NCBI GenBank assembly: GCA_024234165.1
Contig: JACKOP010000005.1
Span: forward strand, 234,078 to 298,077
DNA: 64,000 bases
Source: Pseudomonadales bacterium
GTDB lineage: Bacteria > Pseudomonadota > Gammaproteobacteria > Pseudomonadales > UBA5518
Direction of reading: 5' to 3'
The notes beneath the pieces are model-generated. The model was not told the origin of the DNA and did no database searches. It saw only the letters and a list, made by a program, of their open reading frames with translations. This document shows, in pieces, positions 5,238 through 39,176 of the stretch (the stretch's first letter is position 1; every line of letters begins with the position of its first letter). The translations under genes were made by a program, and so were the position numbers.

Positions 5238-5269
5238 CGAAACTCCGTTACGCATCGTGCCCACCCCAT

Positions 5270-6922: not shown

Positions 6923-6940
6923 CGCGCATGGCAGCGCGCC

Positions 6941-10088: not shown

Positions 10089-10149
10089 AGGCACGCGCAC
10101 ACCCCGGCGTCTCGAAGATCATTTTTTACCCGCACAGGAGGACTTCAAC

Positions 10150-10917: not shown

Positions 10918-10935
10918 GCGCGGACACAGACGCCG

Positions 10936-22824: not shown

Positions 22825-23251
22825 CTGCGCCCCCCAATCGATGTGCCGACTGTAGGTGGCCGCGTCACGCCGCGGCATCCGCCGGCAGGGATGGGTCAGG
22901 CAAGGCAGAAGGAGGATGCGGCATCGTCCGAAGGAACTATGCCCATCGGCGGCGCGTCATCGTGACTCGACGGCGCAAGCTGACTGTTGGAGCAAGCAGC
23001 TCCCACGGGAGCGAGAGGAAATGGACGCCATGTTCTGGTCATCCGGCAGCATGCGTGCTATACGGCAAGTTGCCGCGAAAAAACACGGCGAACTTGCGAA
23101 CCTGATCGAAAGGAAAGACGAGCAGGATGTTGTTTTTCATGACTTTGGATTCTGGAGATTTTTTATCAGTGTTTGGATGGCGCTCGAAGTCGCTGCGTGC
23201 TAGATGGATGAGTGCCGTGTTACAACACGGACGATTCCCGTCCACTCACTG

Positions 23252-23624
23252 TTAGTTTCGCTCCGCTTTTCGTGCAGAAGACAAAGTTGATGCTGTTCAG
23301 CGCGCAGGCGTTGTTGCACCAGAAAGCGCTCGCCGTGATTTCGCCGAGTCGTGGTTCAAACCGAGCGGCTATCGGCCAACGGTGATATGCACCAGTTTTG
23401 GGGCATTTGCCGTTGTCAGCCGCTGACGTCAGTTGTTCCGCGCGCGACGGAGTCTGAGCCAGGCTTGTGTGCGTTTGGAGATATCGCAACGGGGCTTGCA
23501 AGCGTGTGGCCGCGCGCGGCAGAGTAAGGCTGGATAGCGCGCTGTGCGTGAAGTTTGGAAAGTCGAAACTAACCCATCGCTGCAGGCACGACGGCCCTGT
23601 CGGGCCGCGGCCTGAGCTCAAACG
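23252..23624 (+). mobile_element. gene cassette 1 (373 bp, no convincing ORF)
   Basis: Begins TTAGTT after G23251. Its attC R'' is AACTAAC, the exact complement of G+TTAGTT. Confidence 0.6.
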
Positions 23625-23630
23625 TTATGC
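23567..23630 (+). other. attC recombination site of cassette 1
   Basis: R'' is AACTAAC and R' is GTTATGC. Internal stems CAGGC/GCCTG and GGCCC/GGGCC. Confidence 0.7.
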
Positions 23631-23700
23631 GCTCTTGTGGCCGCGCAGCCTGATTCATGTGAAAATCTACGCCATTCTTCCTAGTCGGCACCCAATCTCC

Positions 23701-24339
23701 ATGAAATCCCCGAAGTTTGACCGTTCTAAGCATGTGTACCGAAACGATGCGTTCGCCGAATTGGTAAAGGACGCAGTTCGTTTCTTCAACGGGACCCCGG
23801 TTCATACGCTGCCTCCCCCAGAAGAATTTTTTGGAACGGGGGTATATGCGTTGTATTACACGGGCAAGAATCCGCAATACAAAAAGTACGCAGACCTAAA
23901 TCGGCTGGCTTACAGCCATCCAATTTATGTTGGCAAGGCTGTGCCAAAAGGCTGGCGGCAATCGCGAATCTCAGATGGCGAGGGGGTGCAGTCGAAGGAA
24001 CTGTATACGCGGTTGCGCGAGCATTCGAGGAGTATTACGCAGGGTGCCGGCTTAGAGCTTAAGGATTTCTCCAGCCGTTTCGTAATCTTCGAAAAAGAAG
24101 GCTCCGATATGATCGGAACCATTGAGGCTGCGCTAATTAAGTTAAACCGGCCGCTTTGGAATACCGCTGTTGATGGGTTTGGCAATCATGATCCCGGTAG
24201 TGGGCGCTATGAGCAGGCCAAGTCAGATTGGGATGTCATCCATCCTGGTCGATCTTGGGCAGAAAAATGTAATGGCCGTCCTACAGACAAGCGCACGATT
24301 CTCAGCAATATTGAGCGTCATCTTAAAAGTCTCGGGTGA
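23701..24339 (+). CDS. GIY-YIG restriction endonuclease, Eco29kI-like
   Basis: KFDRSKHVYRND, GVYALYYTG, PIYVGKAVPKGWRQSRI, IEAALIKLNRPLWNT, WDVIHPGRSWAEKC. From memory this resembles Eco29kI. It is immediately upstream of a C5-methyltransferase. Confidence 0.8.
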   Translation: MKSPKFDRSKHVYRNDAFAELVKDAVRFFNGTPVHTLPPPEEFFGTGVYALYYTGKNPQYKKYADLNRLAYSHPIYVGKAVPKGWRQSRISDGEGVQSKELYTRLREHSRSITQGAGLELKDFSSRFVIFEKEGSDMIGTIEAALIKLNRPLWNTAVDGFGNHDPGSGRYEQAKSDWDVIHPGRSWAEKCNGRPTDKRTILSNIERHLKSLG

Positions 24340-25511
24340 TTGCAATGCGTTCTTTGGAAGTGTTCTCGGGGGCCGGCGGCCTCGCAAAGGGCCTTGAGCA
24401 AGCGGGCTTCGAGCACTCTGCTTTTGTAGAGTTCAACAAGCATGCATGTGCATCACTCTCAGAGAACTTCACGCCAGAGAGAGTTTTCTTTGGAGACATA
24501 AGAGATTTTGATTTGGGTAGCGTGGGGTCTGTTGATGTTGTTGCAGGTGGCCCGCCGTGTCAGCCGTTCTCTCTTGGTGGCAAGCACAAAGCAGATCAAG
24601 ATGATCGAGACATGTTTCCTTATGCCATTAGAGCAATTGAGTTCCTTACGCCTAAGGCCTTTGTTTTTGAGAACGTAAAGGGCCTGCTTAGGCCAAGTTT
24701 CGCTGAGTATTTTGAATACATTATTCTTCGCCTTACTTATCCGGGCTTCTCAGCGAAGCCAAAGATGGCGTGGCAAGATCATCTGGCGCAACTTAGAGCG
24801 GCGAACAAGTTCGCGTACGCCGGCGTTAAGTATGACGTTCAATATAAACTCATAAACGCTGCGGACTATGGCGTTCCTCAAACCCGCGAGCGTGTGGTTA
24901 TCGTTGGAATTCGTTCAGACCTTAAGAAAACATGGTCCTTCCCGGCTGCAACACACTCGGAAGATCGGCTGCTTTGGGAAATGCATGTGTCGGGAGAGTA
25001 CTGGCGGCGGCACCGAGTGGCGCTTGCAAAGCGCCCCAGCATCGAACCGTCCATGCAAGAGCGGATCGCGCGCATCAACGAGCGTTATGGGCTCTTTGAG
25101 CCCGAACTTCTACCTTGGAAAACTGTGCGAGACGCGCTCCATGACGTTCCTGATCCACGGAGCAAGCATGGCATTGCAGACCACATCTTTAAGGATGGGG
25201 CGCGTAGTTACGCTGGCCACACTGGCAGTGATTATGACTGGCCTTCAAAGACCATTAAGGCCGGAGGCCATGGCGTGCCGGGCGGGGAGAACATGATCCG
25301 CTACGCGGATGAAAGCATTCGCTACTTCACCGTCTTTGAAGCAAAACGCATCCAAACCTTCCCGGATGATTTCATTATCAAAGGTGCGTGGGGCGAGGCA
25401 ATGCGTCAAATTGGCAACGCCGTCCCGGTTGCTCTAGGTGAAGTCTTTGGCACCCATCTTTGGTCGCTGCTCTCGAAAAAATATTCCGCTGCTAAGGCGT
25501 CTGCCAAGTAA
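24336..25511 (+). CDS. DNA (cytosine-5)-methyltransferase
   Basis: LEVFSGAGGL (motif I), GGPPCQPFS (motif IV), ENVKGL (motif VI), QTRERV, and GNAVPV (motif X). The GTG at 24336 overlaps the upstream stop. An alternative ATG lies at 24345. Confidence 0.93.
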   Translation: MIAMRSLEVFSGAGGLAKGLEQAGFEHSAFVEFNKHACASLSENFTPERVFFGDIRDFDLGSVGSVDVVAGGPPCQPFSLGGKHKADQDDRDMFPYAIRAIEFLTPKAFVFENVKGLLRPSFAEYFEYIILRLTYPGFSAKPKMAWQDHLAQLRAANKFAYAGVKYDVQYKLINAADYGVPQTRERVVIVGIRSDLKKTWSFPAATHSEDRLLWEMHVSGEYWRRHRVALAKRPSIEPSMQERIARINERYGLFEPELLPWKTVRDALHDVPDPRSKHGIADHIFKDGARSYAGHTGSDYDWPSKTIKAGGHGVPGGENMIRYADESIRYFTVFEAKRIQTFPDDFIIKGAWGEAMRQIGNAVPVALGEVFGTHLWSLLSKKYSAAKASAK

Positions 25512-25535
25512 TTGGCAATTAGTTTGAGTGTTCGC

Positions 25536-25589
25536 GCATAACGAATAGGGATAGGTCGCGCGCAGCCGCGACCTGATCCCGGGTTGAAC
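25536..25589 (+). other. attC recombination site of the R-M cassette
   Basis: GCATAAC-GAATAGGGATAGGTCGCG-CGCAGC-CGCGACCTGATCCCGG-GTTGAAC. The R'' GCATAAC is the complement of the cassette start G|TTATGC at 23624-23630. Confidence 0.85.
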
Positions 25590-25813
25590 AAGCCCGTGCC
25601 CTGGAGTGGCGAACGCTTTTTTATAGGGGAAAGCTTTTCGGACGTGTGAGGGCATCGTTGCCCGATCAGGCGGATGATTTTCACCAGACGAACGCGGCCC
25701 GCACCCGCGAGCGCAGCGTGTCTTGCCTGTCTGGATCCATCAGTGGCGCGAGGTCCTCCTCGGGAGTGGATTGCCGGCGAGCACACCACGCTCTCCGGGC
25801 CAGCGGATCATGT
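25584..25813 (-). mobile_element. truncated second copy of the recombinase/IS91 unit (transposase-distal end only)
   Basis: It is the reverse complement of about 31300-31536, with few mismatches. IS66 cuts it at 25814. Confidence 0.75.
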
Positions 25814-25834
25814 GTAAGCGGTCAAACGACGCCG

Positions 25835-27448
25835 TTATATCTTTCCGCAGGCGAGTATGGATTTCATGGGATCGTGGGCGAAGCGTGCCTTCCATTCTCG
25901 CGGCGTGAGCTCGACCGCCCGACTCGCCGGATGCACGCTGATGCGCTGCAGCACATCGACCAGGTAGGTGTAAGGATCCACGCCCTGTAGGCGGCAACTC
26001 ACCAGCAGGCTCTGGATAACCGCTACCCGCTCGGCACCGACCTCGGTCCAACAGAAGAGCCAATTGCGCCGTCCCATTGGAACCGCCCGCAGGCTGCGCT
26101 CCAGGTGGTTGGTGTCGATCGGCACATCCGGATCCGACAAGAACACCCGCAGGCTCGTCACCCGCGCCTTCGCGTACTGGATCGCCTTGGCGAGCGGGTT
26201 ACTCGGCAACAGATCCATGCGGTGGCACTGGTCGTCACACCAGTGCCAGAAGCGGTCGACGATCGGCTCGCTGTGCTGTGTTCGGTAAGCGAGCTTGTGT
26301 TCCCGGTCCAGGTTCTGTTCCCGGATGATCTGCTCGTGCCGGTACAGCGCGGCAATCATCGCCAGCGCCTCGGCCGCCGCCTGCGGTTCGGCATCCTGTG
26401 CCTGCTCGAAGCCTCGGCGGCAATGCGCCCAACAACTCGCGTGGGTAACGCCACCTTTGCGTGCCGCATAGGCGCTGTAGGCGGCGTAGCCGTCCGAGAG
26501 CAGCGTTCCCCGGAAGTCCGGCCCCAGGATTTTCTCGACATGGTGGTGCGCCCGGGTCGGCGCGTAGTGGAAGACGATCTCGTCGTCCTCGCCGTAGATC
26601 GGCCAGAGGTAGGCTGGCGCATCTTGCCCTGCTTCTCGCGTCCGCCTTGATCGGGGTCTCGTCCATCGCCACCACCGATCCGATCCGAGGAGGATGTGGG
26701 CGTGCTGGGCCGCTGCGATGGGGCGCAGCAGATCGATGGCCCGTCCGCTCCAGTTGCTGAGGCTGGTACGGCTCAGCTGGATGCCGCACTGGGCGATCCG
26801 CTGGTGCTGGCGATACAGCGGCAGGTGGTAGCAGAACTTGTCGACGAGCATTCCGGCCAGCAGGCTCACATCGGCCACGCAGCGCTCGAGCACGCTTGCC
26901 GGTGCCGGGGTGCTGACGATGCGCTGCTCTTCGACCAGCTTCCGGTCTGGTAGTGGTACTCGATGATCCCGTAGCTGCCCGGGCGTTGCGCCGCGGCGGT
27001 AGCTGACGCGCTCGGAGACCAGCTCGCGCCGATCCTCGGGTACGGCAGCAATCGCTGGATCGACGATGGTGACCACGTCGCGGGTGACATCCGGGCCAAA
27101 GCGCAATCCTGAGTCGTTCACCGCCGCATCGCGCACCTTGCGCTGGCGCGTGTAGGTGATCGACTGCTCGGGAGGCGGTGGGGATTTCTGCGGAGGTTCA
27201 AGCACACCGAGCGCATCGAGCAGGTTGCCCTGTACGGCGGGATCGATGACCAGTTGCTTTTCGCTCTTCTGCCCGAAGAGCTGGCGCTTGAACCAGTCGA
27301 GCTGCTGCTTCAGCGTTGCAATCTCGGCGCCGTACTGCTGCTTCAGCGTGCCGAGTTCCGTGCCAAACTTCTGCGTCATCGCGACCATCTGCACCGTAAG
27401 TTGCGCATTGGTTTGTTCGAGTTCGGCGATGCGCGAAGCGGTGTTCAA
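25835..27448 (-). pseudogene. IS66 TnpC transposase with two compensated frameshift patches
   Basis: Compared with copy 2, VVAMDETPIKAGREKQGKMRQ is replaced by out-of-frame DRWWRWTRPRSRRTREAGQDAP. LAQRPGSYGIIEYHYQTW is replaced by RGATPGQLRDHRVPLPDR. Confidence 0.75.
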
Positions 27449-27502
27449 GGGCGGAAAATACTGCAGGAAAACCGTGCCGCCATTGTACCGGAATGCCCCT
27501 GC

Positions 27503-27862
27503 TCATGCCGCTGTTCGGTAGCGTTTTCGCTGCCTTTTTATCTCGACGTCGACGCCTTCGAGCAGCGCCAGAAACTCGGTGGCGCACAGCGCACGTTTCA
27601 CGCGTCCATCGCGTGTCATCAGGCGGGCAAAGTGTCCGCGCTCGAGTCGCTTCGACCAGATCCAGTAGCCGCCCGTCTCGAAGCCGAGCACCTTGATCTG
27701 CGTGGCGCGGCGGTTGAGAAACGCGAACCATTGGCTGCTACTGCCCAGCGGGTCTTCTCCCAGGTGTTGCTTCACCCGCGCCGACAACCCATCGAACGAG
27801 CAGCGCATGTCGGTGGGCTCCAGACACAGCCAGATGCGCGATGCGCTGCTGACGCTCAGCAT
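27503..27862 (-). CDS. IS66 Orf2 (TnpB)
   Basis: MLSVSSASRIWLCLEPTDMRCSFDGLSARV. 119 aa, intact. Confidence 0.85.
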   Translation of the reverse strand: MLSVSSASRIWLCLEPTDMRCSFDGLSARVKQHLGEDPLGSSSQWFAFLNRRATQIKVLGFETGGYWIWSKRLERGHFARLMTRDGRVKRALCATEFLALLEGVDVEIKRQRKRYRTAA

Positions 27863-28200
27863 GGCGCGTCCCGGCGCAGCCGCAGCACAACGCCTGCGCC
27901 CAAATCAAGCTCTACTTCCCATGCGGGTGCGGCCGGTGACGCCTCGGTCTTGTCGACTATCGGTGCGGTCAATTCGACAAACAGCGCTTCAGGCCGAACA
28001 CCAACAGCGTCAACAACCCGTGCTCCGCGCAGCTTGCGCCGCCACAGCTCGAAGGTGCTCTTCGCCAGGCCGTGGCGGGTGCAGAACGCCTGCTGCGAAA
28101 CACCGCTTGCCTCGAACTCGCTGATCAACGCGCGCCACCGTGCCGCGCTGTGACGCGCATACTTGCGCACAGAACCTGAACCCGTCGATGCCGAACCCAT
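27856..28200 (-). CDS. IS66 Orf1 (TnpA, HTH)
   Basis: MGSASTGSGSVRKYARHSAARWRALISEFEASGVSQQAFCTRHGLAKSTFELWRRKL. Confidence 0.75.
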   Translation of the reverse strand: MGSASTGSGSVRKYARHSAARWRALISEFEASGVSQQAFCTRHGLAKSTFELWRRKLRGARVVDAVGVRPEALFVELTAPIVDKTEASPAAPAWEVELDLGAGVVLRLRRDAPC

Positions 28201-28288
28201 GGCGATACTCCTCCAACACCACTTCGTTGAAGCAGAGCATCGCGAAGGTTCAGACGGCATAACAGAACGGCGTGGTTTGGACGGTTAC

Positions 28289-28876
28289 CGCCTGATGGCG
28301 ATGCTCGAGGGCTGCGCAGAGCTCACGCTCGAGCGGCTGAACGAGGCCACGCAGGCCTGGGTCGAGATGGAGTACAACCGCCGTTCTCACAGCGAACTCG
28401 GCTGTTCTCCGCTGGCACGCTACGGCGACGGCACCGATGTCGGACGCGAGTGCCCCGGGAGCGAGCGGCTGCGCCAGGCGTTTCGCACCGAAGCCGTGCG
28501 CACCCAGCGGCGCTCCGACGGCACGTTCTCGCTCGAAGGCACACGCTTCGAGGTGCCCTCGCGCTACCGCCACCTCGCACGGCTCACGGTGCGCTACGCG
28601 CGCTGGGACCTGCGCACGGTCGAGCTGATCGATCCGCTGAGCGGGACGCCGATCTGTGCGCCCTACCCGCTGGACAAGACGGCTCACGCCAGCGCCGCGA
28701 GGCGCCTGCACGCAGTGCGCACGCCTCCGGTACCCGTGCTGCCCGACCCGCCGGCGCACAGCCCCATGGCGCCGCTGTTGCGCGCGCTCATGGTCGAGTA
28801 TGCCGCCACCGGGCTGCCCCCGGCCTACGTGCCCCTGTCCAACGACGCACCCCTTGCCGAGGATCCGCTGCGATGA
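28289..28876 (+). pseudogene. 5'-truncated Mu/Tn552-like DDE transposase (end of rve core plus Mu-transposase C-terminal domain)
   Basis: Begins abruptly at the IS66 end. WVEMEYNRRSHSELG and LTVRYARWDLRTVELID motifs. Confidence 0.65.
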
Positions 28877-29199
28877 ACAAGCAACTGCTCGCCCTTTATG
28901 GTCTGAAGTGGAATCCCTTCTCGCCCGAACTGCCCACCGAGGCGCTGCGCCTCACGCCGGCGGTGGAGAACTTCGCCTGGCGTATCGAGCACGCGCTCGT
29001 GCGCGAAGGCGGCTTCGCGCTGATCAGCGGCGATGTCGGTACGGGCAAGAGCGTGGCGCTGCGTCTGATCGCCGAGCGCCTCGCCCCCGTGCCGGATCTG
29101 ACCGTTGCCGCACTCACGCACCCGAGCGCCAACCTCGCCGACTTCTACCGCGAGCTCGGTGATCTGTTCGCCGTGGAGCTGCGCCCGCACAACCGCTGG
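28873..29199 (+). pseudogene. ExeA/TniB-like AAA ATPase, N-terminal fragment
   Basis: MNKQLLALYGLKWNPFSPELP, with Walker A GDVGTGKS. The reading frame is broken after ...RPHNRW by the 29200-31577 insertion. Confidence 0.75.
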
Positions 29200-29311
29200 T
29201 TGAACGAAGCCGCTTCGCGGCAGGAACAAGACGAGAAGAACGAGACGCCAAAACCGGGAAACTTCTCCGGCACCCCCAGGCCCGGGTGTGCATCACCAAA
29301 GGAGAAGCGAC

Positions 29312-30217
29312 ATGGATTCATCGGAGCAAACCCGTTTTGACGCACTGTACGCGAAGCATCTTAGAGCACTGAAGCTTCAAGGCAAGGCAGCGAAGACGAT
29401 CGATGGTTACGCACGAGTGCTGCGCCGGGTAGCCGCACACTTCGATCGCTGTCCGGATCGACTGGACGCGGAAGACTTCAAGTCCTACTTCGCCTCGCTG
29501 ATCGACGAGCGATCGTGGAGCCTGGTGAAGATCGAACGCTGCGGACTGCAGTTCTTCTACGAACACGTCCTGGAGCGGGAGTGGCCGTGGGTGGGCATGC
29601 TCAAGCCGCCGGTGGTGCACGCGCTGCCCGATGTGCTCAGCGTCGACGAGGTCGCACAGATCATCCGGGCGAGTCGCGAGCGGCGCTACCGGACGTTCTG
29701 GCTGACGACCTACAGCCTGGGCCTGCGTCTGGGCGAAGCGCTGCGGTTGCGGATCGGTGATATCGACAGCGCCCGTGCCCAGGTCCATATCCGCAGCGGC
29801 AAGGGGCACAAGGACCGCTTCGTGGTGCTGCCGGCACTGACCCTGCAGTGCCTGCGCCGCTACTGGCGTGATCATCGCCACCATGAGCTGTTGTTTCCAG
29901 GGCGTGCTGGACCGCAGGGTATTCCGGCTGCCACCTTCATGGATCGCGGCAGCACCCAGAAGGCGTTTGCCCGTGTCGTGGCCGACTGCGGCATCCGCAA
30001 GCGGGTGTCGATCCACAGTCTTCGCCATGCCTACGCCACCCACCTCATCGAAGTCGGCCTGAATCTGCGCGGTGTGCAGGAACTGCTCGGTCATGCCTGC
30101 CCGAAAACCACGGCGCGCTATGTGCACATGACGGACAAGTGCCGTGATGATCGCCGCGTGCTGATCGACGGCTTGATGGGCGAGTTGCACCAGCGTCTGC
30201 GGGAGGCTCGGTCATGA
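29312..30217 (+). CDS. tyrosine recombinase (XerD/IntI-like, without the IntI-specific insertion)
   Basis: AAGGAG sits 7 nt upstream of the ATG. LQFFYEHVLEREWPW, GLRLGEALRLRIGDID, GKGHKDR, SLRHAYATHL, LLGHACPKTTARYVH (R-K-H-R-H-Y set). Confidence 0.85.
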   Translation: MDSSEQTRFDALYAKHLRALKLQGKAAKTIDGYARVLRRVAAHFDRCPDRLDAEDFKSYFASLIDERSWSLVKIERCGLQFFYEHVLEREWPWVGMLKPPVVHALPDVLSVDEVAQIIRASRERRYRTFWLTTYSLGLRLGEALRLRIGDIDSARAQVHIRSGKGHKDRFVVLPALTLQCLRRYWRDHRHHELLFPGRAGPQGIPAATFMDRGSTQKAFARVVADCGIRKRVSIHSLRHAYATHLIEVGLNLRGVQELLGHACPKTTARYVHMTDKCRDDRRVLIDGLMGELHQRLREARS

Positions 30218-30250
30218 CCCAAGCCCTCGCCCCCCCTGCGTCTGGCCGAG

Positions 30251-31285
30251 GTGTTCGACGCCGGACACGCCGCCCTGATGGCGCGCTACGGAGCGCGCCT
30301 GCACCCCCGACAACACCAGGCGATGGCCGCCATCCGGGGCTGCCGAAGCGGTGAGCTCGGTGAACTGCACTGGCGCTGTCCCGACTGCAGTGCACGACAC
30401 CACACGCCCCGCTCCTGTGGTCATCGCAGCTGCCCGGCCTGCCAGAACCACTGCACCTCGCAGTGGCTCGATCGGCAACGCCGTAAGCTCCTGCCCGTGG
30501 ACTACTTCATGGTGACCTTTACCTTGCCGGCACCCTTGCGTGCCGCCGCGCAGGCGTACCCCGAAACCGTCTATGCCGCCTTGTTTCGCGCCGCCTCGCA
30601 GACCCTCAACGGTTTCGCGACGCGAAAGCTCAAGGCGGAACTCGGCCAATGCGCGGTACTGCACACCCACAACCGTCGTCTCGATCTGCACCCGCACGTG
30701 CACGTCATCGTGCCCGGAGGCGCAATCGATGCGCGGCGCCGGCAGTGGCGAAAACTCTCCGGGCGTTACCTCTTCAACGCCTTTGCCCTGGCCCGGGTGT
30801 TCCGCGCCCGTATGCTGCAGGCCCTGCAGCTCGCCGGCGTGCCGATCCCTGTCGGCCTGCCGCCGAAATGGGTGGTCGACTGTCGCCGTGTCGGTCGTGG
30901 CGAGCCGGCATTGCAGTACCTCTCGCGCTACCTCTATCGGGGTGTCATCCGCGAGCGCGACCTCCTCGACTACGACCGCCTCGCCGGCACCGTCACCTTC
31001 CGCTACCGTGACGCCAAGACCCGCCAGCCCGCACAGCGCACCCTGCCCATCGCCGAGTTCCTGTGGCGCGTGCTCGCCCACGTCCTGCCGACCGGATTCC
31101 GTCGTGTGCGCGAGTACGGATTCCTGCACTGCCGAGCCAGGCGACGCCTCGTTCTCGTGCAACTCGTCTTGCATGTGCTGGTCCAGGCGGCAACGTTGCG
31201 ACCACGCCCACCGCTGTGTTGCATGCGCTGCCATACCCCGATGATCGTCGTCGCCGTCACCAAACGCCGCAGACCCGACGGCTGA
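30251..31285 (+). CDS. IS91-family HUH-Y2 rolling-circle transposase (N-terminus uncertain or frameshifted)
   Basis: Zn-finger CPDCSARHHTPRSCGHRSCPACQ, HUH motif HPHVHVIVPGG, Y2 motif YLSRYLYRG. An ATG at 30214 (ATGA with the upstream stop) is out of frame by one C in a C7 run. Confidence 0.85.
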   Translation: MFDAGHAALMARYGARLHPRQHQAMAAIRGCRSGELGELHWRCPDCSARHHTPRSCGHRSCPACQNHCTSQWLDRQRRKLLPVDYFMVTFTLPAPLRAAAQAYPETVYAALFRAASQTLNGFATRKLKAELGQCAVLHTHNRRLDLHPHVHVIVPGGAIDARRRQWRKLSGRYLFNAFALARVFRARMLQALQLAGVPIPVGLPPKWVVDCRRVGRGEPALQYLSRYLYRGVIRERDLLDYDRLAGTVTFRYRDAKTRQPAQRTLPIAEFLWRVLAHVLPTGFRRVREYGFLHCRARRRLVLVQLVLHVLVQAATLRPRPPLCCMRCHTPMIVVAVTKRRRPDG

Positions 31286-31529
31286 GGCAACGTTCGCGGA
31301 TCGCCACATGATCCGCTGGCCCGGAGAGCGTGGCGTGCTCGCCGGCAATCCACTCCCGAGGAGGACCTCGCGCCACCGATGGATCCAGCCAGGCAAGACG
31401 TGCTGCGCTCGCGGGTGCGGGCCGCGTTCGCCTGGTGAAAATCATTCCGCCTGATCGGGCAACGACGCCCTCACGCGTCTGAAAAGCTTTCCCCTATAAA
31501 AAGCGTTCGCCACTCCGGGGCACGGGCTT

Positions 31530-31577
31530 GTTCAACCCGGGATCAGGTCGCGGCTGCGCGCGACCTATCCCTATTCG
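31530..31577 (+). other. attC-like site at the end of the recombinase/IS91 unit
   Basis: GTTCAAC-CCGGGATCAGGTCGCGG-CTGCGC-GCGACCTATCCCTATTC-G. G plus the unit's first 6 nt TTGAAC gives GTTGAAC, the complement of GTTCAAC. Confidence 0.7.
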
Positions 31578-32052
31578 ATGGGCTTCAAGGCGCTGCGTAC
31601 CCGCTGGATCGCCCATCTGGAGAGCACGCGGCTTCGCCCCGTGCTGCTGATCGACGAGGCGCAACAGGTCGCCCCGCTCGTGCTCTCGGAGTTGCGCCTG
31701 CTCGCCTCGGCGCACTTCGACTCGCGCAGCCTGCTGAGCGTCGTGCTCGCCGGCGACCAGCGTCTGAACGAGTTGCTGCGCCGCGACGAACTCCTGCTGC
31801 TCGGTTCGCGCATCCGCGCACGCCTCTCGCTGGAGTACGCCAGCCGCGAGGAACTGCTGGCCTGCCTGAAGCACCTGCTCGCAAGCGCCGGCGCCCCGCT
31901 CTGATGACACCCGAGCTGATGCACACCGTCTGCGACCACGCCATGGGTAACTACCGTGCGCTCACCACCATGGCCGCGGAACTGCTCGCCGCCGCCGCGC
32001 AGCGCGAGCTCGTCCAGCTCGACGAGAAGCTGTACCTCGCGGTGTTCACGCC
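31578..32052 (+). pseudogene. ExeA/TniB-like AAA ATPase, C-terminal fragment with an additional frameshift near 31895
   Basis: GFKALRTRWIAHLESTRLRPVLLIDEAQ (Walker B) continues the N-terminal fragment. The frame changes at ...SAGAPL* / MTPELMHTVCDHAMGNYRAL. Confidence 0.65.
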
Positions 32053-32445
32053 CCGGGGCAATCCGCCGGCACGCGCCGCACCCGGCTCACCAGCGCTTGA
32101 GCCGGCAACCATGAAATCGTCCCGGCACCACCCCATCGAATTCCCGAGCAGCTCAGCGACGAGGGCGCGGCACACATCCTCGACTTCCTCTACGAGGTGA
32201 TCCGCGCCTTCGAGTCGCGCTACTTCGTGCAGATCCGTCGCCACCATCGCCACACCGCCGCTGAGTACGCCGCCCAGCGCGCCGAGCGCACCCAGCTCGA
32301 ACTGCCCTCACAATCCCCGACGAGCCGTCCGACCCGGTCTTCTGAGCCATCGTCAGACCGTCGCCACAGCGCCTCGCAGCCGCCGGGCGCTGCGGTTGCG
32401 TCGCACCCAAAACGCGGTCGACACCGGCAGCGCCAATGCCGGACA

Positions 32446-32682
32446 CCTCGCAATATCACATCACGGCTGCAGACCATCAGAAAGCGTGATCAGCTCGCCA
32501 TCGATTACCGTGGTCATGCTCAGGTTACGGACGACTTGCGGGTTCCTCCGGGTAATCGGCTCGAAGCGCTGAGGGGCAGAAGATCTGGCCAGTACAGCAT
32601 TCGTATCAACGATCAATGGCGCGTCTGTTTTCGTTGGGCCGACTCAGGTGTCGAAGACGTCGAGATCGTGGATTACCACTGA
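32446..32682 (+). pseudogene. higB: HigB-like toxin lacking its N-terminus and start codon
   Basis: [49 protein letters not shown]. There is no in-frame start, and it is fused in frame to transposon-derived sequence upstream. Confidence 0.6.
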
Positions 32683-32694
32683 GGTGATGTTGTC

Positions 32695-33033
32695 ATGAGC
32701 AAGCTCGATCCCATTACTCCCGGCAAACTTCTCTTGGAGGAGTTCCTAGCGCCTATGGGGATCAGCCAGTACCGCCTGGCGAAGGAAGTCGATGTGCCGG
32801 CGCAGCGCATCAGCGAAATCGTTTCTGGCAAGCGCGCCATTACTGCGGATACGGACTTGCGGCTGTGCCGTTTCTTCGGTCTTTCCAGCGGCTACTGGTT
32901 GCGTGCGCAGGCCGCGCACGATACGGAGGTTGCCGAGAGGGAACTCGGCCCGGTTCTGAAGCGGATCAAACCATGGGCAGCAAATGCGACCGAACAACAC
33001 GGCGCAGCGGACGCCTCTTCGAGGCGCCGCTGA
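32695..33033 (+). CDS. higA: HigA-family antitoxin (XRE HTH)
   Basis: ITPGKLLLEEFLAPMGISQYRLAKEVDVPAQRISEIVSGKRAITADTDLRLCRFFG. Confidence 0.85.
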   Translation: MSKLDPITPGKLLLEEFLAPMGISQYRLAKEVDVPAQRISEIVSGKRAITADTDLRLCRFFGLSSGYWLRAQAAHDTEVAERELGPVLKRIKPWAANATEQHGAADASSRRR

Positions 33034-33048
33034 CCGCCATCGTTAGCC
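32992..33048 (+). other. probable attC site of the higBA cassette
   Basis: R' GTTAGCC (33042-33048) defines the next cassette start. It has an imperfect hairpin GGCGCAGCGGACGCC / GGCGCCGCTGACCGCC. The R'' GAACAAC is weak. Confidence 0.45.
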
Positions 33049-33053
33049 CCGCT

Positions 33054-33371
33054 TCAAATACCGGTAATGAGCAAGTCGAGAGCAGCAATAATTTCGTCAC
33101 GCTTCGAAGAAAGATCGATCGCCTTCGCTCCAAGCATCTTCTTCGGAACGCCGGCCAGTTGCGGCGTCACCATGACGTACTGCTTACCTTCAATCTCAAA
33201 GACTGGAGTCAACGTTTCGAGGATCTTTCCTTTCATCGCAGCTACTGAGTAGAGGGGCGCCACAACTCGCGTGGCCAGATCTTCAATCAGATCGCTTTGA
33301 ACGTTGAGCAGATAAGGAACGGTGCTCTTGGTGTCAGGGTTGGCGTTCTTGTGAACGGAAAATTGCGTCAT
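33054..33371 (-). CDS. ccdB: CcdB-family gyrase toxin
   Basis: MTQFSVHKNANPDTKSTVPYLLNVQSDL...LTPVFEIEGKQYVMVTPQLAGV. 105 aa. Confidence 0.85.
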   Translation of the reverse strand: MTQFSVHKNANPDTKSTVPYLLNVQSDLIEDLATRVVAPLYSVAAMKGKILETLTPVFEIEGKQYVMVTPQLAGVPKKMLGAKAIDLSSKRDEIIAALDLLITGI

Positions 33372-33616
33372 CAGAAGTTCCGCAGTCCGTCGCTGAATAC
33401 GCCGTGCTTCTCTACGTGGTCGTTATAGGCGTCAATCGAGGCCTTATTGTCGGCTAGCCATTTGGCCTTCTGTTTCTCCCGCAGGGCATTGGCCAGAGCC
33501 TGCTCCAGGGTGGCGGACAGGTTTATGTCCAATTCCTTGGCTTTGGTGAGCAAGTCCCCGTTAACGCTGAGATTTGCAGGTCGCTTGGGGGCATGGGTAT
33601 CGTAGGTCGGCACCAT
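33371..33616 (-). CDS. ccdA: CcdA-family antitoxin
   Basis: 81 aa. KRPANLSVNGDLLTKAKELDINLSATLEQAL. Its stop abuts the ccdB start. Confidence 0.8.
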   Translation of the reverse strand: MVPTYDTHAPKRPANLSVNGDLLTKAKELDINLSATLEQALANALREKQKAKWLADNKASIDAYNDHVEKHGVFSDGLRNF

Positions 33617-33688
33617 AGCGGGCTCCCTCTGGGGTTTGTATGCGCATACGATATACGCATATCAAGGCGCAAGCCAGTGTGGTGGCGG

Positions 33689-33766
33689 GGCTAACGAATA
33701 GGTGAGCCTGACCAGACTACCCTCCGCGCTGCGCGCTCCGGCGGCGGCTCATGCACGCCGTTAGGG
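33689..33766 (+). other. attC site of the ccdAB cassette
   Basis: R'' is GGCTAAC, the complement of the cassette start G|TTAGCC. R' is GTTAGGG. Internal stem TGAGCC/GGCTCA. Confidence 0.8.
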
Positions 33767-33979
33767 TTGCTTGGCAAGTGCTTGCGCCAGCGTCATCGCG
33801 ATCGCCGGGAATTCCTTGAGTATCTTCTTGTCGGCAGTAACGAGTTTCGCGTTCAGGCGCTTTGCCAGCGCAACAAACTCACAGTCGTACGCAGAGCACT
33901 CGCTGGATTCCACCAGCCTCAGGACGTCGAGGGAGGGAACTTCATATTCCGAATCTGCGTAAGCGGTCAAACGACGCCG

Positions 33980-35590
33980 TTATATCTTTCCGTAGGCGAG
34001 TATGGATTTCATGGGATCGTGGGCGAAGCGTGCCTTCCACTCGCGTGGCGTGAGCTCGACCGCCCGACTCGCCGGATGTTCGCTGATGCGCTGCAGTACA
34101 TCGACCAGGTAGGTGTAGGGGTCAACGCCCTGTAGGCGGCAACTCACCAGCAGGCTCTGGATAACCGCTACCCGCTCGGCACCGACCTCGGTCCAACAGA
34201 AGAGCCAATTGCGCCGTCCCATTGGAACCGCCCGCAGGCTGCGCTCCAGGTGATTGGTGTCGATCGGCACATCCGGATCCGACAAGAACACCCGCAGACT
34301 CGTCACACGCGCTTTTGCGTACTGGATCGCCTTGGCGAGCGGGTTACTCGGCAACAGATCCATGCGGTGGCACTGGTCGTCACACCAGTGCCAGAAGCGG
34401 TCGACGATCGGCTCGCTGTGCTGTGTTCGGTAAGCGAGCTGGTGTTCCCGGTCCAGGTTCTGTTCCCGGATGATCTGCTCGTGCCGGTACAGCGCGGCGA
34501 TCATCGCCAGCGCTTCGGCCGCCGCCTGGGGTTCGGCATCCTGTGCCTGCTCAAAGCCTCGGCGGCAATGCGCCCAGCAACTCGCGTGGGTGACGCCACC
34601 CTTGCGTGCCGCATAGGCGCTGTAGGCAGCGTAGCCGTCCGAGAGCAGCGTTCCCCGGAAGTCCGGACCCAGGATCTTCTCGACATGGTGGTGCGCCCGG
34701 GTCGGGGCGTAGTGGAAGACGATCTCGTCGTCCTCGCCGTAGATCGGCCAGAGGTAGGCCTGGCGCATCTTGCCCTGCTTCTCGCGTCCCGCCTTGATCG
34801 GGGTCTCGTCCATCGCCACCACCGATCCACTGAGGATGTGGGCGTGCTGGGCCGCTGCGATGGGGCGCAGCAGATCGATGGCCCGTCCGCTCCAGTTGCT
34901 GAGGCTGGTGCGGCTCAGCTGGATGCCGCACTGGGCGATCCGCTGGTGCTGGCGATACAGCGGCAGGTGGTAGCAGAACTTGTCGACGAGCATTCCGGCC
35001 AGCAGGCTCACATCGGCCACGCAGCGCTCGAGCACGCTTGCCGGTGCCGGGGTGCTGACGATGCGCTGCTCTTCGACCAGCTTCCAGGTCTGGTAGTGGT
35101 ACTCGATGATCCCGTAGCTACCCGGGCGTTGCGCCAGGCGGTAGCTGACGCGCTCGGAGACCAGCACGCGCCGCTCCTCGGGTACGCCAGCAATCGCCGG
35201 ATCGACGATGGTGACCACGTCGCGGGTGACATCCGGACCAAAGCGCAGTCCCGAGTCGTTCACCGCCGCATCGCGCACCTTGCGCCGGCGCGTGTAGGTA
35301 ATCGACTGCTCGGGAGGCGGTGGGGACTTCTGCGGAGGTTCAAGCACGCCGAGTGCATCGAGCAGGTTGCCCTGCACGGCAGGATCGATGCTCAGCTGCT
35401 TCTCGCTCTTCTGCCCGAAGAGCTGACGCTTGAACCAGTCGAGCTGCTGCTTCAGCGCTGCGATCTCGGCGCCGTACTGTTGCTTCAGTGTGCTGAGATC
35501 CGCGCCAAATTTCTGCGTCATCGCGGCCATCCGCACCGTGAGTTGCGCATTGGTGTGTTCGAGTTCGGCGATGCGCGAAGCGGTGTTCAA
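33980..35590 (-). CDS. IS66 TnpC DDE transposase (apparently intact)
   Basis: 536 aa. Contains VVAMDETPIK and the C-terminal CWAHCRRGF region. Confidence 0.9.
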   Translation of the reverse strand: MNTASRIAELEHTNAQLTVRMAAMTQKFGADLSTLKQQYGAEIAALKQQLDWFKRQLFGQKSEKQLSIDPAVQGNLLDALGVLEPPQKSPPPPEQSITYTRRRKVRDAAVNDSGLRFGPDVTRDVVTIVDPAIAGVPEERRVLVSERVSYRLAQRPGSYGIIEYHYQTWKLVEEQRIVSTPAPASVLERCVADVSLLAGMLVDKFCYHLPLYRQHQRIAQCGIQLSRTSLSNWSGRAIDLLRPIAAAQHAHILSGSVVAMDETPIKAGREKQGKMRQAYLWPIYGEDDEIVFHYAPTRAHHHVEKILGPDFRGTLLSDGYAAYSAYAARKGGVTHASCWAHCRRGFEQAQDAEPQAAAEALAMIAALYRHEQIIREQNLDREHQLAYRTQHSEPIVDRFWHWCDDQCHRMDLLPSNPLAKAIQYAKARVTSLRVFLSDPDVPIDTNHLERSLRAVPMGRRNWLFCWTEVGAERVAVIQSLLVSCRLQGVDPYTYLVDVLQRISEHPASRAVELTPREWKARFAHDPMKSILAYGKI

Positions 35591-35647
35591 GGGCGGAAAA
35601 TACTGCAGGAAAACCGTGCCGCCATTGTACCGGAATGCCCCTGTTGT

Positions 35648-36003
35648 TCATGCCGCTGTTCGGTAGCGTTTTCGCTGCCTTTTTATCTCGACGTCGACGC
35701 CTTCGAGCAGCGCCAGAAACTCGGTGGCGCACAGCGCGCGTTTCACGCGTCCATCACGTGTCATCAGGCGTGCAAAGTGTCCGCGCTCGAGTCGTTTCGA
35801 CCAGATCCAGTAGCCGCCCGCCTCGAAGCCGAGCACCTTGATCTGCGTGGCGCGACGGTTGAGAAACGCGAACCATTGGCTGCCACCCAGTGGGTCTTCT
35901 CCCGGTGTTGCTTCACCCGCGCCGACAACCCATCGAACGAGCAGCGCATGTCGGTGGGCTCCAGACACAGCCAGATGCGCGATGCGCTGCTGACGCTCAG
36001 CAT
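35648..36003 (-). pseudogene. IS66 Orf2 (TnpB), frameshifted
   Basis: Relative to copy 1 it has a 3-nt and a 1-nt deletion (CCCAGGTG to CCCGGTG). This splits MLSVSSASRIWLCLEPTDMRCSFDGLSARVKQH from ...DPLGGSQWFAFLNRRATQIKVLGFE. Confidence 0.7.
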
Positions 36004-36046
36004 GGCGCGCGCCCGGCGCAGCCGCAGCACCACGCCTGCGCCCAAA

Positions 36047-36343
36047 TCAAGCTCTACTTCCCATGCGGGTGCGGGCTGGTGACGCCTCGGTCTTGTCGAC
36101 TATCGGTGCGGTCAATTCGACAAACAGCGCTTCGGGCCGAACGCCCGCCACATCAGCGTTTCGGGTTTCGCGTAGCTTGCGCCGCCACAGCTCGAAGGTG
36201 CTCTTCGCCAGGCCGTGGCGGGTGCAGAACGTCCGCTGCGAAACGCCGCTCGCCTCGAACTCGCTGATCAGCACGCGCCACTGTGCCGCGCTGTGGCGCG
36301 CATACTTGCGCACGGAATCTGAACCCGTCGATACCGAACCCAT
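36047..36343 (-). CDS. IS66 Orf1 (TnpA) with an altered, shortened C-terminus
   Basis: 98 aa. It diverges from copy 1 after ...DKTEASPA because of a 1-nt insertion. Confidence 0.6.
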   Translation of the reverse strand: MGSVSTGSDSVRKYARHSAAQWRVLISEFEASGVSQRTFCTRHGLAKSTFELWRRKLRETRNADVAGVRPEALFVELTAPIVDKTEASPARTRMGSRA

Positions 36344-36648
36344 GGCGATACTCCTCCAACACCACTTCGTTGAAGCAGAGCATCGCGAAGGTTCAGACGG
36401 GATAACAGAACGGCTTCGTTTGGCCGGTTACGAATCTGCGAGCAGAGTCTCGGCTTCAGTTTGAATGGAATAGGCGTGCTCGAAGGAAAGCAGCTCCTTT
36501 CTTATATATAGCGCAAGCACATTGCGCAGCTCGCTGCGCCAAAGTGCGGGGGCGGCCCAATGAGGTTCCTTTGCCAGCAGCTGCTCTGCCTCGGCGCTGA
36601 GGTCTGAGGGCAGGTAGAGGTAGGCAATGATGTTGCTATCAACAACGA

Positions 36649-36894
36649 TCACGGGCGGCCTTCATCTATGGCCTCGAGAATATCGGCCGCTTTGAACTTC
36701 TTGCCCTTGAGGCTCTCCCGAATCTGCCGAGCGCGGGCCATATGCTCCTCATTGCTGGCCTTGGAAGGCAGCAAGACCCGCTCCAGGCAGGCTATGGCTT
36801 CGCTGTTAATGCTCCGGTGGTGGGCATCGGCAGCCTGCTTGAGGCTGTCGTAGATCTCATCGGGTATGTTCTTGAGGGTAATGGTTGCACCCAT
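36649..36894 (-). CDS. Arc/FitA-like ribbon-helix-helix antitoxin (VapB-type)
   Basis: 81 aa. MGATITLKNIPDEIYDSLKQAADAHHRSINSEAIACLE. Its stop overlaps the disrupted PIN gene start. Confidence 0.75.
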   Translation of the reverse strand: MGATITLKNIPDEIYDSLKQAADAHHRSINSEAIACLERVLLPSKASNEEHMARARQIRESLKGKKFKAADILEAIDEGRP

Positions 36895-36956
36895 AGCGGC
36901 TTACCTTGGAACCATATTGGAACCAATATGGTATCTCTGGGCGCCGGGCGGAGCAA

Positions 36957-37010
36957 CCCTAACGAATAGGGATAGGTCGCGCGCCGCCGCGACCTGAGCC
37001 CGGGTTAGGG
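36957..37010 (+). other. attC site of the vapBC::IS66 cassette
   Basis: CCCTAAC-GAATAGGGATAGGTCGCG-CGCCGC-CGCGACCTGAGCCCGG-GTTAGGG. R'' is the complement of the cassette start G|TTAGGG at 33760. Confidence 0.88.
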
Positions 37011-37391
37011 CCGCTCTACGCGTCGTTCCGTATGCTTCTTGGTATTCTTGATGAAGTTGGCGTCGAAGGTCTTGAGCGTGTCCTGATCCTTGCTTAGTGC
37101 AAGATGAAACGCATCGGCAAAGTCGAATCCCACCTCGTGCCAGGCAATGACCTGGGCAATGAGCGTGCCGTCGCTAACTGTCACGTTTTGTAGGCCACAT
37201 ACGCGCCGGAATGCGGTGCATATGTCTGCTGGGGTTAAGTCGAAGGCGGCGCGTAATACCCACTCGGTTTCCAGCAGCACGGTGTCCGGAATGAAGATGT
37301 CTTCGGAAGCGAAGAGTTTGTGGCTGGCTTTGCTCTGGATCGCGTTGTCGCTGACCAGCAGCCGTACCAGTACATTGGTATCAATTGCCAT
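37005..37391 (-). CDS. PIN-domain toxin (VapC family)
   Basis: MAIDTNVLVRLLVSDN...IFIPDTVLLETEWVL...DFADAFHL. Confidence 0.85.
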   Translation of the reverse strand: MAIDTNVLVRLLVSDNAIQSKASHKLFASEDIFIPDTVLLETEWVLRAAFDLTPADICTAFRRVCGLQNVTVSDGTLIAQVIAWHEVGFDFADAFHLALSKDQDTLKTFDANFIKNTKKHTERRVERP

Positions 37392-37644
37392 CACGCCACT
37401 TACTCCGCATGTCGTGAGCCAATGCTGCCGCAATTTCCTCGTCCGTCTTCGGGGATACCTTATCTTTGAACATGCCAAAGACCTCGGAGAGGTCCGAGGG
37501 GGCAAAAGTGGCCTTGGGCTTAAGCAGGAGGCCGTCCCCGGTGTCTATCACCATGAGTTCAAGGCCGGGCTCCCAGTGATGGGTGCTCCGGAAGGCCTTG
37601 GGTATGATCACTTGGCCTTTGCTGGAGAGTTTAGTGGTTTCCAT
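37381..37644 (-). CDS. AbrB/MazE/SpoVT-family antitoxin
   Basis: METTKLSSKGQVIIPKAFR. 87 aa. 11-nt overlap with the PIN gene. Confidence 0.85.
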   Translation of the reverse strand: METTKLSSKGQVIIPKAFRSTHHWEPGLELMVIDTGDGLLLKPKATFAPSDLSEVFGMFKDKVSPKTDEEIAAALAHDMRSKWRDGN

Positions 37645-37715
37645 AAGGGCGCCCTAAAAGTAAGACGAAGGTAAGATTATGCCTGCGGGGCCTGCCTGTC
37701 AAATCGAGCAGGCTG

Positions 37716-37769
37716 CCCTGACAAATAGGGATAGCCCGCGCGCAACCGCGACCTGATCCCGGATTGAAC
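37716..37769 (+). other. attC site of the PIN/AbrB cassette (slightly degenerate)
   Basis: CCCTGAC-AAATAGGGATAGCCCGCG-CGCAAC-CGCGACCTGATCCCGG-ATTGAAC. R'' has one mismatch to the complement of the cassette start TTAGGG. R' has A in place of G. Confidence 0.7.
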
Positions 37770-37830
37770 AAGCCCGTGCCCCGGAGTGCCGGGCCAAAGG
37801 TTTTCCAGTCCGGCAAGCCTTGGCGGCAGG

Positions 37831-38253
37831 CTATGCGGCCGCTGTCATGTGCCGGCGGTGGACGAGATCGAACAGAACCCCGGCCACGATCAGCAGCACG
37901 ATGGCTTCCACCACCTGCACGCCCAGCAGCAGCCAGGTCGCGCCTTCCACGCCGACGAAGAACTGCATGTTGGGCAGCACGACGAACAGTCCGCCCCACA
38001 GGCCCCACCAGATCGCCTTGCCGACGCCGCCGGCCGGATAGAGCCGCATGAACAACCACAGGAACATGGTGATCTGGACCAGGTAGGTCAGGAACAGGAA
38101 GGGCATCAGCGCGGCCATTTCCGCGCTGGAGCGCTGCGGGTAGCCTTCGTACAGATTGGGCACGGCCACTGCGTGAAACGCCACATCGGCCACGAAGAGG
38201 ATCACGGCCAAAATCACGCTCGTCACCAGAAACCGCACCGTCAGCTTGTTCAT
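37831..38253 (-). CDS. small integral membrane protein (4 predicted TM segments), function unknown
   Basis: Starts MNKLTVRFLVTSVILAVILFV. Hydrophobic throughout. Confidence 0.55.
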   Translation of the reverse strand: MNKLTVRFLVTSVILAVILFVADVAFHAVAVPNLYEGYPQRSSAEMAALMPFLFLTYLVQITMFLWLFMRLYPAGGVGKAIWWGLWGGLFVVLPNMQFFVGVEGATWLLLGVQVVEAIVLLIVAGVLFDLVHRRHMTAAA

Positions 38254-38443
38254 GGATTTCCCCTCATCGATGCCGCTTTCGTGCAGTTGGTATTTGTATA
38301 CGTGCTGATCCGTAATGCAAGCAATCGCCATTTGCCGCTGCTGTCTTCGCTGTTCACCCGCGCGCCGACGTGCGCCATGTGTTTCTTCTTTGGTGATGCA
38401 TACCCCGGGATGAAGCGCTCGCGCGGGTCCGTGCCCGACTGAC

Positions 38444-38500
38444 GTGACCTACTGGATCCACCCTGAGGCTGAGGCCGAACTGGGTGATGCCGTCAGACAT
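38444..38500 (+). pseudogene. N-terminal stub of a ParE/RelE-family toxin
   Basis: V-TYWIHPEAEAELGDAV matches the usual ParE N-terminus. The similarity ends at the island/narL junction. Confidence 0.4.
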
Positions 38501-38504
38501 ACAC

Positions 38505-39176
38505 TCACTGTAATCCGTGCTCGGTGGCAATCACGGCCGCCTGTACCCGCGACGCGACGTCGAGCTTGCGCAGCACGTGCTGGACGTGGATCTTCACCGT
38601 CGTTTCGGCAATGCCCAGCTCGCGTGCAATGACCTTGTTGCTGTCGCCTCGAGCAATGCCTCGCAGGATATCGCGCTCGCGCGCGGACAGCGCATCGAGC
38701 GGCGAGGTCGGCGCCGGATTTTGCTGCAACACCGTGTCCGTTTGACGCACTGCCGACACCAGCTTGGTGGTCATCTCCGTGGCGATCACACTCTCGCCCG
38801 CCATCGCACGCCGTATCGCATCGCCGAGTACGTCACCATCGATCGTCTTCAGCAGATAACCACAGGCACCACCGCGCAGCGCATCCAGCAGGTCCTGCTC
38901 GTCCTCGCTGACGGTGAGCATCAGGATCCTCGCGGCGGGCGCCGCCTCGCGCAGAGCGGGCAGTGCGTCGACCCCGCGCACTCCGGGCAGGTGATTGTCG
39001 AGCAGCACCAGGTCCGGCTGCTGCTCGGCTGCGCGCAGCAGTGCATGACTCACGTCCGCCTCGTCGCCGATCACGAGGAACCCGGGTTCACGCGCGAGCA
39101 GCGCAGTGAGTCCACGGCGGAACAAGGTGTGGTCATCGACCACGAGGATGCGGATCGGCGTAGCCGTCTCGTTCAT
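38505..39176 (-). CDS. narL: nitrate/nitrite response regulator
   Basis: REC domain RILVVDDHTLFR and a LuxR HTH LSARERDILRGIARGDSNKVIARELGIAETTVKIHV. Adjacent to narX. Confidence 0.93.
   Translation of the reverse strand: MNETATPIRILVVDDHTLFRRGLTALLAREPGFLVIGDEADVSHALLRAAEQQPDLVLLDNHLPGVRGVDALPALREAAPAARILMLTVSEDEQDLLDALRGGACGYLLKTIDGDVLGDAIRRAMAGESVIATEMTTKLVSAVRQTDTVLQQNPAPTSPLDALSARERDILRGIARGDSNKVIARELGIAETTVKIHVQHVLRKLDVASRVQAAVIATEHGLQ

Follow-up and report, generated by a model that had tools for sequence, protein, structure and literature searches.

The narL–narK1 Interval

The window analyzed here is a 64-kb stretch of DNA (64,000 nucleotides; contig JACKOP010000005.1 of assembly GCA_024234165.1, forward-strand positions 234,078 to 298,077) from a Pseudomonadales bacterium of the UBA5518 lineage, and all coordinates below are window positions unless a contig is named. 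Between the response regulator gene narL and the nitrate/nitrite transporter gene narK1 it carries about 15 kb of accessory DNA. The original prediction had described this DNA as an island bounded by a 10-bp direct repeat, the decamer CACTCACTGT, and inserted there in a single site-specific step. We describe what the interval contains and how it could have been assembled; in our reading it is probably an integron cassette array without its integrase.

The narL gene (38505–39176, minus strand) was of normal length and ended in ...EHGLQ*. In 33 of 34 relatives the NarL C-terminus was GL or GV plus one residue and the stop, with one longer variant, and nothing is therefore truncated. The sensor kinase gene narX (39173–41167, minus strand; PilJ, HAMP, HisKA_3, and HATPase_c domains) lies beside it. 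On the other side, narK1 (21532–22878, minus strand) has its likely start at 22824, and its upstream region (~22880–22950) was conserved in the relative L011. As had been proposed, narK1 usually comes directly after narXL in relatives; in most of the 80 related genomes examined the spacing is 100–250 bp. The adjacency is therefore ancestral, and the accessory interval divides an ancestrally adjacent narXL/narK1 pair.

From the narK1 promoter region to the first cassette runs a stretch of uncertain origin (22951–23251; GC 0.54) with no homologue outside the species. It includes a species-only 60-aa open reading frame (ORF; 23021–23203) and a structured element (23198–23257). The predicted hairpin CCGTGT-TACA-ACACGG was present at 23216–23231, and the surrounding 23198–23257 folded better than shuffles (z ~−3). 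This flank was rejected as a full attC or attI site, as it is structured but by eye lacks a credible inverse core. The 60-aa ORF was likewise rejected as a genuine cassette gene, having no homologues outside the species.

Cassettes and attC Sites

Gene content was assigned by Pfam and NCBIfam, and the DNA between the two decamer copies consisted of cassettes, insertion sequences, and transposon debris, as predicted. It was not lower in GC throughout, as had been claimed: the island gave 0.616, compared with a window value of 0.644. Both IS66 copies, the IS91-type element, and the tni debris were as high as the flanks (0.63–0.70), and low GC (0.52–0.57) was confined to the restriction-modification and toxin-antitoxin cassettes.

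Cassette 1 (23252–23630, plus strand; 373 bp) held no convincing gene. It starts with TTAGTTTCG, and its attC (23567–23630) begins with the exact complement, CGAAACTAAC. In the same way GTTAGTTTCG at 23251–23260 was the exact complement of CGAAACTAAC at 23564–23573, the inverse core of the next attC. On its inverse-core side this attC shares homology with one from the metagenome array L117. The restriction-modification cassette (23625–25541, plus strand) starts with TTATGC, carries genes for an Eco29kI-family endonuclease (~23701–24339) and a C5 cytosine methyltransferase (24336–25511), and ends with the inverse core GCATAAC (25536–25542).

Towards narL, three toxin-antitoxin cassettes were found on the minus strand, with ccdAB in cassette Z, a fitA/vapC pair in Y, and a mazE/vapC pair in X. 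Cassette Z (33042–33695) carries ccdA (33616–33371) and ccdB (33371–33054) and starts with TTAGCC; its inverse core GGCTAAC was found at 33048–33042, and the remainder of its attC was missing. Cassette Y (33690–36962) contains a fitA-like antitoxin gene (36894–36649) and a PIN toxin gene interrupted by IS66 copy 2, with the start TTAGGG, the inverse core CCCTAAC, and an attC at 33766–33690. Cassette X (36957–37721) contains a mazE/AbrB antitoxin gene (37644–37381) and a PIN toxin gene (37505–37005) and has its attC at 37010–36957 (CCCTAAC...GTTAGGG). All these starts were TTRRRY-like, and each pairs with the complementary inverse core of its own cassette (TTAGTTTCG/CGAAACTAAC, TTATGC/GCATAAC, TTAGGG/CCCTAAC for both vapC cassettes, TTAGCC/GGCTAAC).

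A group of clustered attC sites without an integron integrase is termed a CALIN (Cury et al. 2016, PMC4889954). Against the threshold of at least two neighboring attC sites, the interval showed complete attC-type sites at 23567–23630, 33690–33766, 36957–37010, 37716–37769 (degenerate), and 31530–31577. Compared with shuffles, the candidates 23567–23630, 36957–37010, and 31530–31577 folded better (z −2.1 to −3.6), and 33690–33766 did not (z −0.5). Further attC-type remains were the hairpin of a truncated IS91-type copy (25542–25590) and the lone inverse core at 33042–33048. A crude scan by regular expression and folding energy was unspecific in this GC-rich DNA and clearly singled out only 36957–37010.

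The narL-side cassettes most likely read towards narK1, and the two narK1-side cassettes towards narL. The array thus appears to consist of two halves facing each other, and with the halves opposed both outer ends of the island would therefore be cassette-start ends. The hairpin family of the right half is oriented towards narK1, and its polarity looks opposite to that of the toxin-antitoxin attC sites.

Integrase Search and the IS91-Family Element

No integron integrase gene with the IntI-specific domain, next to an attI site and a first cassette, was found in the 64 kb, and no integrase of any kind was found at either island end; the places expected for intI were occupied by narK1 and narL. 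The only tyrosine recombinase gene in the window (29312–30217) scored 145.7 bits with TIGR02249 (cutoff 265) and 102.7 bits with PRK15417 (cutoff 435). Its product was nearest to the integron integrases, with TIGR02249 as the best family and VchIntIA as the best solved structure, and was ~27 aa shorter than VchIntIA at the IntI-specific segment.

This recombinase gene belongs to an IS91-family element (29200–31577, plus strand), which also carries a gene for an HUH Y2 transposase (30251–31285; NF033538, 345 bits, cutoff 125) and an attC-like hairpin (31530–31577). The element starts with TTGAAC and ends with GTTCAAC-CCGGGATCAGGTCGCG-GCTGCG-CGCGACCTATCCC-TATTC-G, so that the hairpin terminates ...CCCTATTCG. 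Both ends are fixed to the base, because a conspecific variant (L002) has an uninterrupted tniB. The element entered tniB at G|AT without target duplication, and together with the HUH Y2 transposase and the lack of terminal inverted repeats this places it in the IS91 family. Classical IS91 inserts next to a GTTC/CTTG tetranucleotide; no such tetranucleotide was seen beside the element end, the tniB flanks being CGCTGG| and |ATGGGC.

Six contigs (L117–L122) were recovered when the metagenome collection was scanned for the element hairpin, and in 6/6 the element was followed by TTAGGC, TTATGC, TTAGGT, or TTATGT. In these arrays the hairpin site is placed between an attC and the TTRRRY bases that open the next toxin-antitoxin cassette, and the element itself is always preceded by the 3' G of an attC and followed by the TTRRRY start of another cassette. 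In L117 and L119 the following element copy begins right after the 3' G of a toxin-antitoxin cassette attC. At such a junction of attC and IS91-type start in L119 (reverse strand, ~3185–3235), the motif GTTGAACGACTG was repeated four times in tandem.

An HUH Y2 transposase gene preceded by a phage-integrase-family gene, as observed here, is also the arrangement of IS91 elements with an upstream tyrosine recombinase gene, which we take to be an ISfinder subgroup. The window element resembles these in its occurrence inside cassette arrays and differs from them in that its ends are of cassette form and defined to the base. One element, ISShvi3, has been recorded beside an attC in a Shewanella integron (PMC9229058).

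Beside narL, unit W (37716–38488, minus strand) carries a gene for a 141-aa membrane protein (38255–37831) and ends in a degenerate attC-like hairpin (37769–37716). About 65 nt, this hairpin included, matched the 3' end of that IS91-type element at 94% identity. At 38408–38376 a 35-nt match was observed to the region just upstream of the start codon of the IS91-type recombinase gene, followed at 38376–38334 by what looks like the 3' remnant of a trhO-like gene of the rhodanese family. The 141-aa gene and its own upstream region were 89% identical to a chromosomal locus in L123. Judged from these matches, unit W may be an IS91-type unit in which chromosomal DNA has replaced the int and tnp genes, that is, a case of gene capture, which we offer as a lead rather than as a finding.

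Insertion Sequences and the Transposon Module

The IS91-type element interrupts a transposon-like module (28289–33041, plus strand). The module contains a C-terminal fragment of tniA (28289–28876), a tniB-like AAA_22 gene (28873–29199 and 31578–31904), a small ORF (31904–32200), higB (~32449–32682), and higA (32695–33033). It was intact in variants L002 and L151. One conspecific strain (L001) showed a 446-bp deletion (window 32709–33154) with loss of most of higA and the ccdB end, and conspecifics L002/L148 carried an additional intact tniA–tniB copy and an IS4-like transposase within the island.

Two IS66-family copies were found on the minus strand. Copy 2 (33960–36431) has an 8-bp target duplication, GAATCTGC, at 33952–33959 and 36432–36439. 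Copy 1 (25815–28288) has non-matching flanks (gatcatgt / cgcctgat) in place of such a duplication, and a deletion or recombination must therefore have taken place there. It links tniA, which is truncated, to the truncated remnant of a second IS91-type element. This remnant is the last 273 bp (25542–25814, minus strand) and is 96% identical to 31305–31577. It lies in inverted orientation, IS66 copy 1 cuts it, and it abuts the GCATAAC box 3' of the methylase gene. Variant L003 carried two IS66 copies in tandem.

The narL Flank in Sister Lineages

The GTDB representatives were too distant for a comparison of the flank (best NarL identity 82%). A protein search gave closer relatives, and four lineages were readable, namely the window, L131/L139 (NarL 90–91%), L145/L146 (NarL 91%), and L157/L158 (NarL 85%). 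After narL, the first of these sister lineages has a 137-aa gene followed by type I restriction-modification and ParDE genes, the second a 65-aa ORF followed by a truncated higB, and the third other small genes.

All four lineages shared the last narL codon CAG, the stop (TGA; TAA in L157), and ~16 more bases, followed by unrelated DNA. After the stop the window reads GTGTATGTCTGACGGC, L145 GCGCATGCCTGCCGGC, L131 GCGCGTGGATGCCGGC, and L157 GCGGCGCGCCTGCCGT. The native 3' flank of narL (38489–38504, minus strand) is homologous across the four lineages, and similarity stops at 38489|38488. The original prediction had placed the island exactly on the narL stop codon. The homology runs 16 nt beyond the stop to 38489, which is 13 nt inside the claimed island; therefore the claimed right junction is not a junction, and variable DNA starts at 38488.

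The accessory DNA immediately 3' of narL differed among four related lineages. In L131 it comprised 4111–12110 (type I restriction-modification and ParDE), in L145 4835–5209 (truncated higB), in L157 3124–4845 (small membrane proteins), and in L011 6673–7480 (a zeta-toxin-like fragment). The higB fragment of L145 was 99% identical to window 32399–32522 and lay at a different position. In L131 the 137-aa gene directly 3' of narL showed 93% DNA identity to window 38283–37857, comparable to the 92% of narX. Since this gene, the 141-aa gene of unit W, follows narL in L131 too, the first island gene predates the split of the two species. Among conspecific strains the island interior varied and its ends did not. 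These sequence comparisons suggest that the narL–narK1 spot is a lineage-specific hot spot, with more distant relatives keeping the 100–250 bp spacer.

No empty site was observed in any of the collections searched. NarL, both NarK1 start variants, and the 60-aa ORF were looked up by exact protein match, and every contig of the species encoding one of them carried the island, its junctions unchanged. In the metagenome scan nothing matched the predicted empty junction TCCCGTCCACTCACTGTAATCCGT. The predicted empty site, the decamer followed by GACGGGAATCG, was shown by no relative and conflicts with the sequence after narL in the sister lineages.

The Decamer Repeat

The repeat itself was as described: CACTCACTGT occurs at 23243–23252 and 38502–38511, these are its only two copies on both strands of the window, and the match extends to 11/12 when the next two bases are included. 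Two copies compare with 0.12 expected, and two copies were found in 0/100 shuffles. The left copy ends one base beyond the crossover point G23251|T23252 of cassette 1. The right copy contains the narL TGA stop (complement of 38505–38507), as predicted; it spans the last narL codon CAG, the stop, and 3 nt more, and 8–9 of its 10 bases were conserved in the closest sister lineages. On this comparison the right copy is no more than native sequence at the end of narL.

The significance of the repeat depended on how the boundaries were set. With free boundaries, a 10-mer common to two plausible boundary zones was unremarkable (P ~0.24); with the right copy required to touch the stop codon, P fell to ~0.023. 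The two copies were also considered as arms of two homologous hairpins, and this was rejected, as the extended alignment was not significant (P = 0.27). The original prediction was thus borne out for the repeat, its overlap with the stop codon, and the island content, but not for the GC difference or a boundary exactly on the stop codon.

Origin of the Array

We consider it probable that the interval is a CALIN in a variable narL–narK1 spot and that it was built stepwise; the decamer repeat most likely does not mark a single integration event. The locus would then be a further example of an already known kind of element. Like other CALINs, it has several attC-type sites bounding promoter-carrying toxin-antitoxin and restriction-modification cassettes, no intI nearby, and insertion sequences inside and beside the array. 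It is unlike a typical CALIN in that the array is heavily interrupted, its halves seemingly face each other, and one attC family travels with an IS91-type element. The origins listed for CALINs are secondary-site insertion, integrase loss, and rearrangement driven by insertion sequences (PMC4889954).

Stepwise turnover is favored over one 15-kb insertion because the cargo of the sister lineages differs at the same breakpoint, the higB fragment is displaced, and the interiors vary among conspecific strains. We infer the following order of events and enzymes involved. The array would have lost, or never had, an adjacent integron integrase, and cassettes would have been added or exchanged at G|TT core sites. 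The IS91-family element, with its own IntI-like recombinase and attC-like end, would have inserted at least twice. The tniA/tniB/higBA module may have landed on the attC of the ccdAB cassette, and two IS66 copies would have inserted, one of which would then have undergone rearrangement.

Several points weigh against this account. A genome with a truly empty site was not found in any collection searched. The narK1-side boundary is without comparative support, as no relative aligns with 22951–23251. The attC sites were judged by hand, from core boxes, complementarity, and folding, and not by the covariance model of IntegronFinder. The polarity of the left-part attC sites rests on the likeness of 23567–23630 (plus strand) to the top strand of the aadA1 attC, as we presume it to read. 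The shared 16 nt after narL could in principle be an arm derived from an element, if all sister islands entered via the same integrase. Finally, when the left landmark is fixed at the start of cassette 1, chance would give only ~4e-4 recurrences within the 189 nt adjoining narL, and the left decamer copy ending exactly at the crossover G|TTAGTT is left unexplained by the stepwise model.

Because this coincidence of left copy and cassette start has no explanation, one alternative is kept alive, although we consider it unlikely. In a single Campbell-type integration, a circle would have entered through a 10-bp core, the decamer copies would be attL and attR, and the interior would have been reshaped later; the agent would be either short-homology recombination or a since-lost tyrosine integrase of the classical type. 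A perfect 10-bp direct repeat (11/12) over a gene 3' end is typical of integrative islands, the left copy coincides with an independently defined boundary, narL is of normal length, and ~100–125 nt from the narL end there is a remnant similar to the start region of a recombinase gene. As in islands of 3'-end tyrosine integrases, the direct repeat covers the 3' end of narL and leaves the gene intact. However, both ends lack an integrase, the repeat is just 10 bp long, and the breakpoint is 13 nt from the repeat; the bases just inside the right copy are conserved in lineages with other islands, and the 141-aa gene is common to the window and L131. Such an integration implies an empty site reading ...GGATTACAGTGAGTGGACGGGAATCGTCCGTG... 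with narK1 ~370 bp on, and a second ACAGTGAG(C/T)G core at the narK1 end of the sister islands. Neither an empty site nor a circle junction (...GACATACACTCACTGTTAGTTTCG...) was found, and an element arm of only 16 nt would be needed if all sister islands used the same site. Of the marks of an integrative island, the repeat was present, but the native flank 13 nt inside it, the lack of an end integrase, and the lack of an empty site were not in keeping with one.

The original prediction itself, in which a complete circular cassette array entered a non-integron genome site in one step by way of an integron integrase, with crossover at G|T within the decamer, is very unlikely. Insertion of cassettes at genome sites by integrases is an established route (bioRxiv 10.1101/2022.09.11.507474; for CALINs, PMC4889954), and a GWT target has been reported for it (bioRxiv 10.1101/2022.09.11.507474). 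The left junction resembles the attG insertion of Loot et al. (bioRxiv 10.1101/2022.09.11.507474), reading genome-G|TT-cassette, and the entry of the IS91-type element into tniB at G|AT fits GWT. On the left, G23251|TTAGTT is a genuine cassette boundary and a proper cassette start, and the decamer abuts it against a chance expectation of 4e-4. On the right the crossover would be G|TA rather than GWT. A complete attC is needed just inside the right junction, but the right inner end (38470–38517) showed no fold (z = +1.2) and no inverse core, so that no attC lies beside it. The attG mechanism yields no 10-bp repeat, and it neither makes nor requires a 9-nt identity upstream of the crossover. In the sister lineages the 13 nt inside the right copy are native, the first island gene lies 3' of narL in L131 as well, the sister cargo points to turnover, and the narL-side cassettes and attC sites are in the opposite orientation to the scheme. 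One-step insertion by an integron integrase is largely refuted by the sister-lineage flank. The earlier interpretation thus kept its reading of the content as cassettes and lost its boundaries, its empty site, and its one-step integron-type insertion.

A DDE or composite transposon with a 10-bp target-site duplication is extremely improbable and already contradicted by the lack of terminal repeats: the island contains transposase genes, and some IS4-family elements make direct repeats of this length, but no terminal inverted repeats or Tn402-like end were found at the island borders (end-to-end local alignment below the shuffle mean, P ~0.97), the resident elements differ (8 bp for IS66, none for the IS91-type element), and native flanking sequence is found inside the right copy.

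Implications

The island is probably of little consequence for the nitrate system, because NarL works in trans, the narL gene is intact and has its normal length, and the conserved narK1-proximal upstream region is kept. No intrinsic terminator was detected after narL, and no FNR box was found upstream of narK1 at ≤2 mismatches in 22825–23250. The sole FNR-box-like match near narK1 (TTGATGCTGTTCAG, two mismatches) lies at 23287–23300, within cassette 1 and outside the conserved narK1 upstream region.

The locus also holds a methodological lesson: a perfect 10-bp repeat at a stop codon mimicked an integration scar, and close sister lineages exposed one copy as a native gene end. As it stands, the locus neatly illustrates an integrase-less cassette array, reshaped by insertion sequences, with defence and addiction modules.

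The part of the locus most deserving follow-up is the IS91-type element in cassette form. Elements that combine an IS91-family HUH transposase, an IntI-like recombinase, and an attC-like end might be self-mobilising cassettes that also capture chromosomal genes, and the hot spot beside narL might have been seeded in this way; we regard this proposal as a long shot. If it is true, gene capture by IS91-type elements would be one route to new cassettes and to integrase-less arrays.

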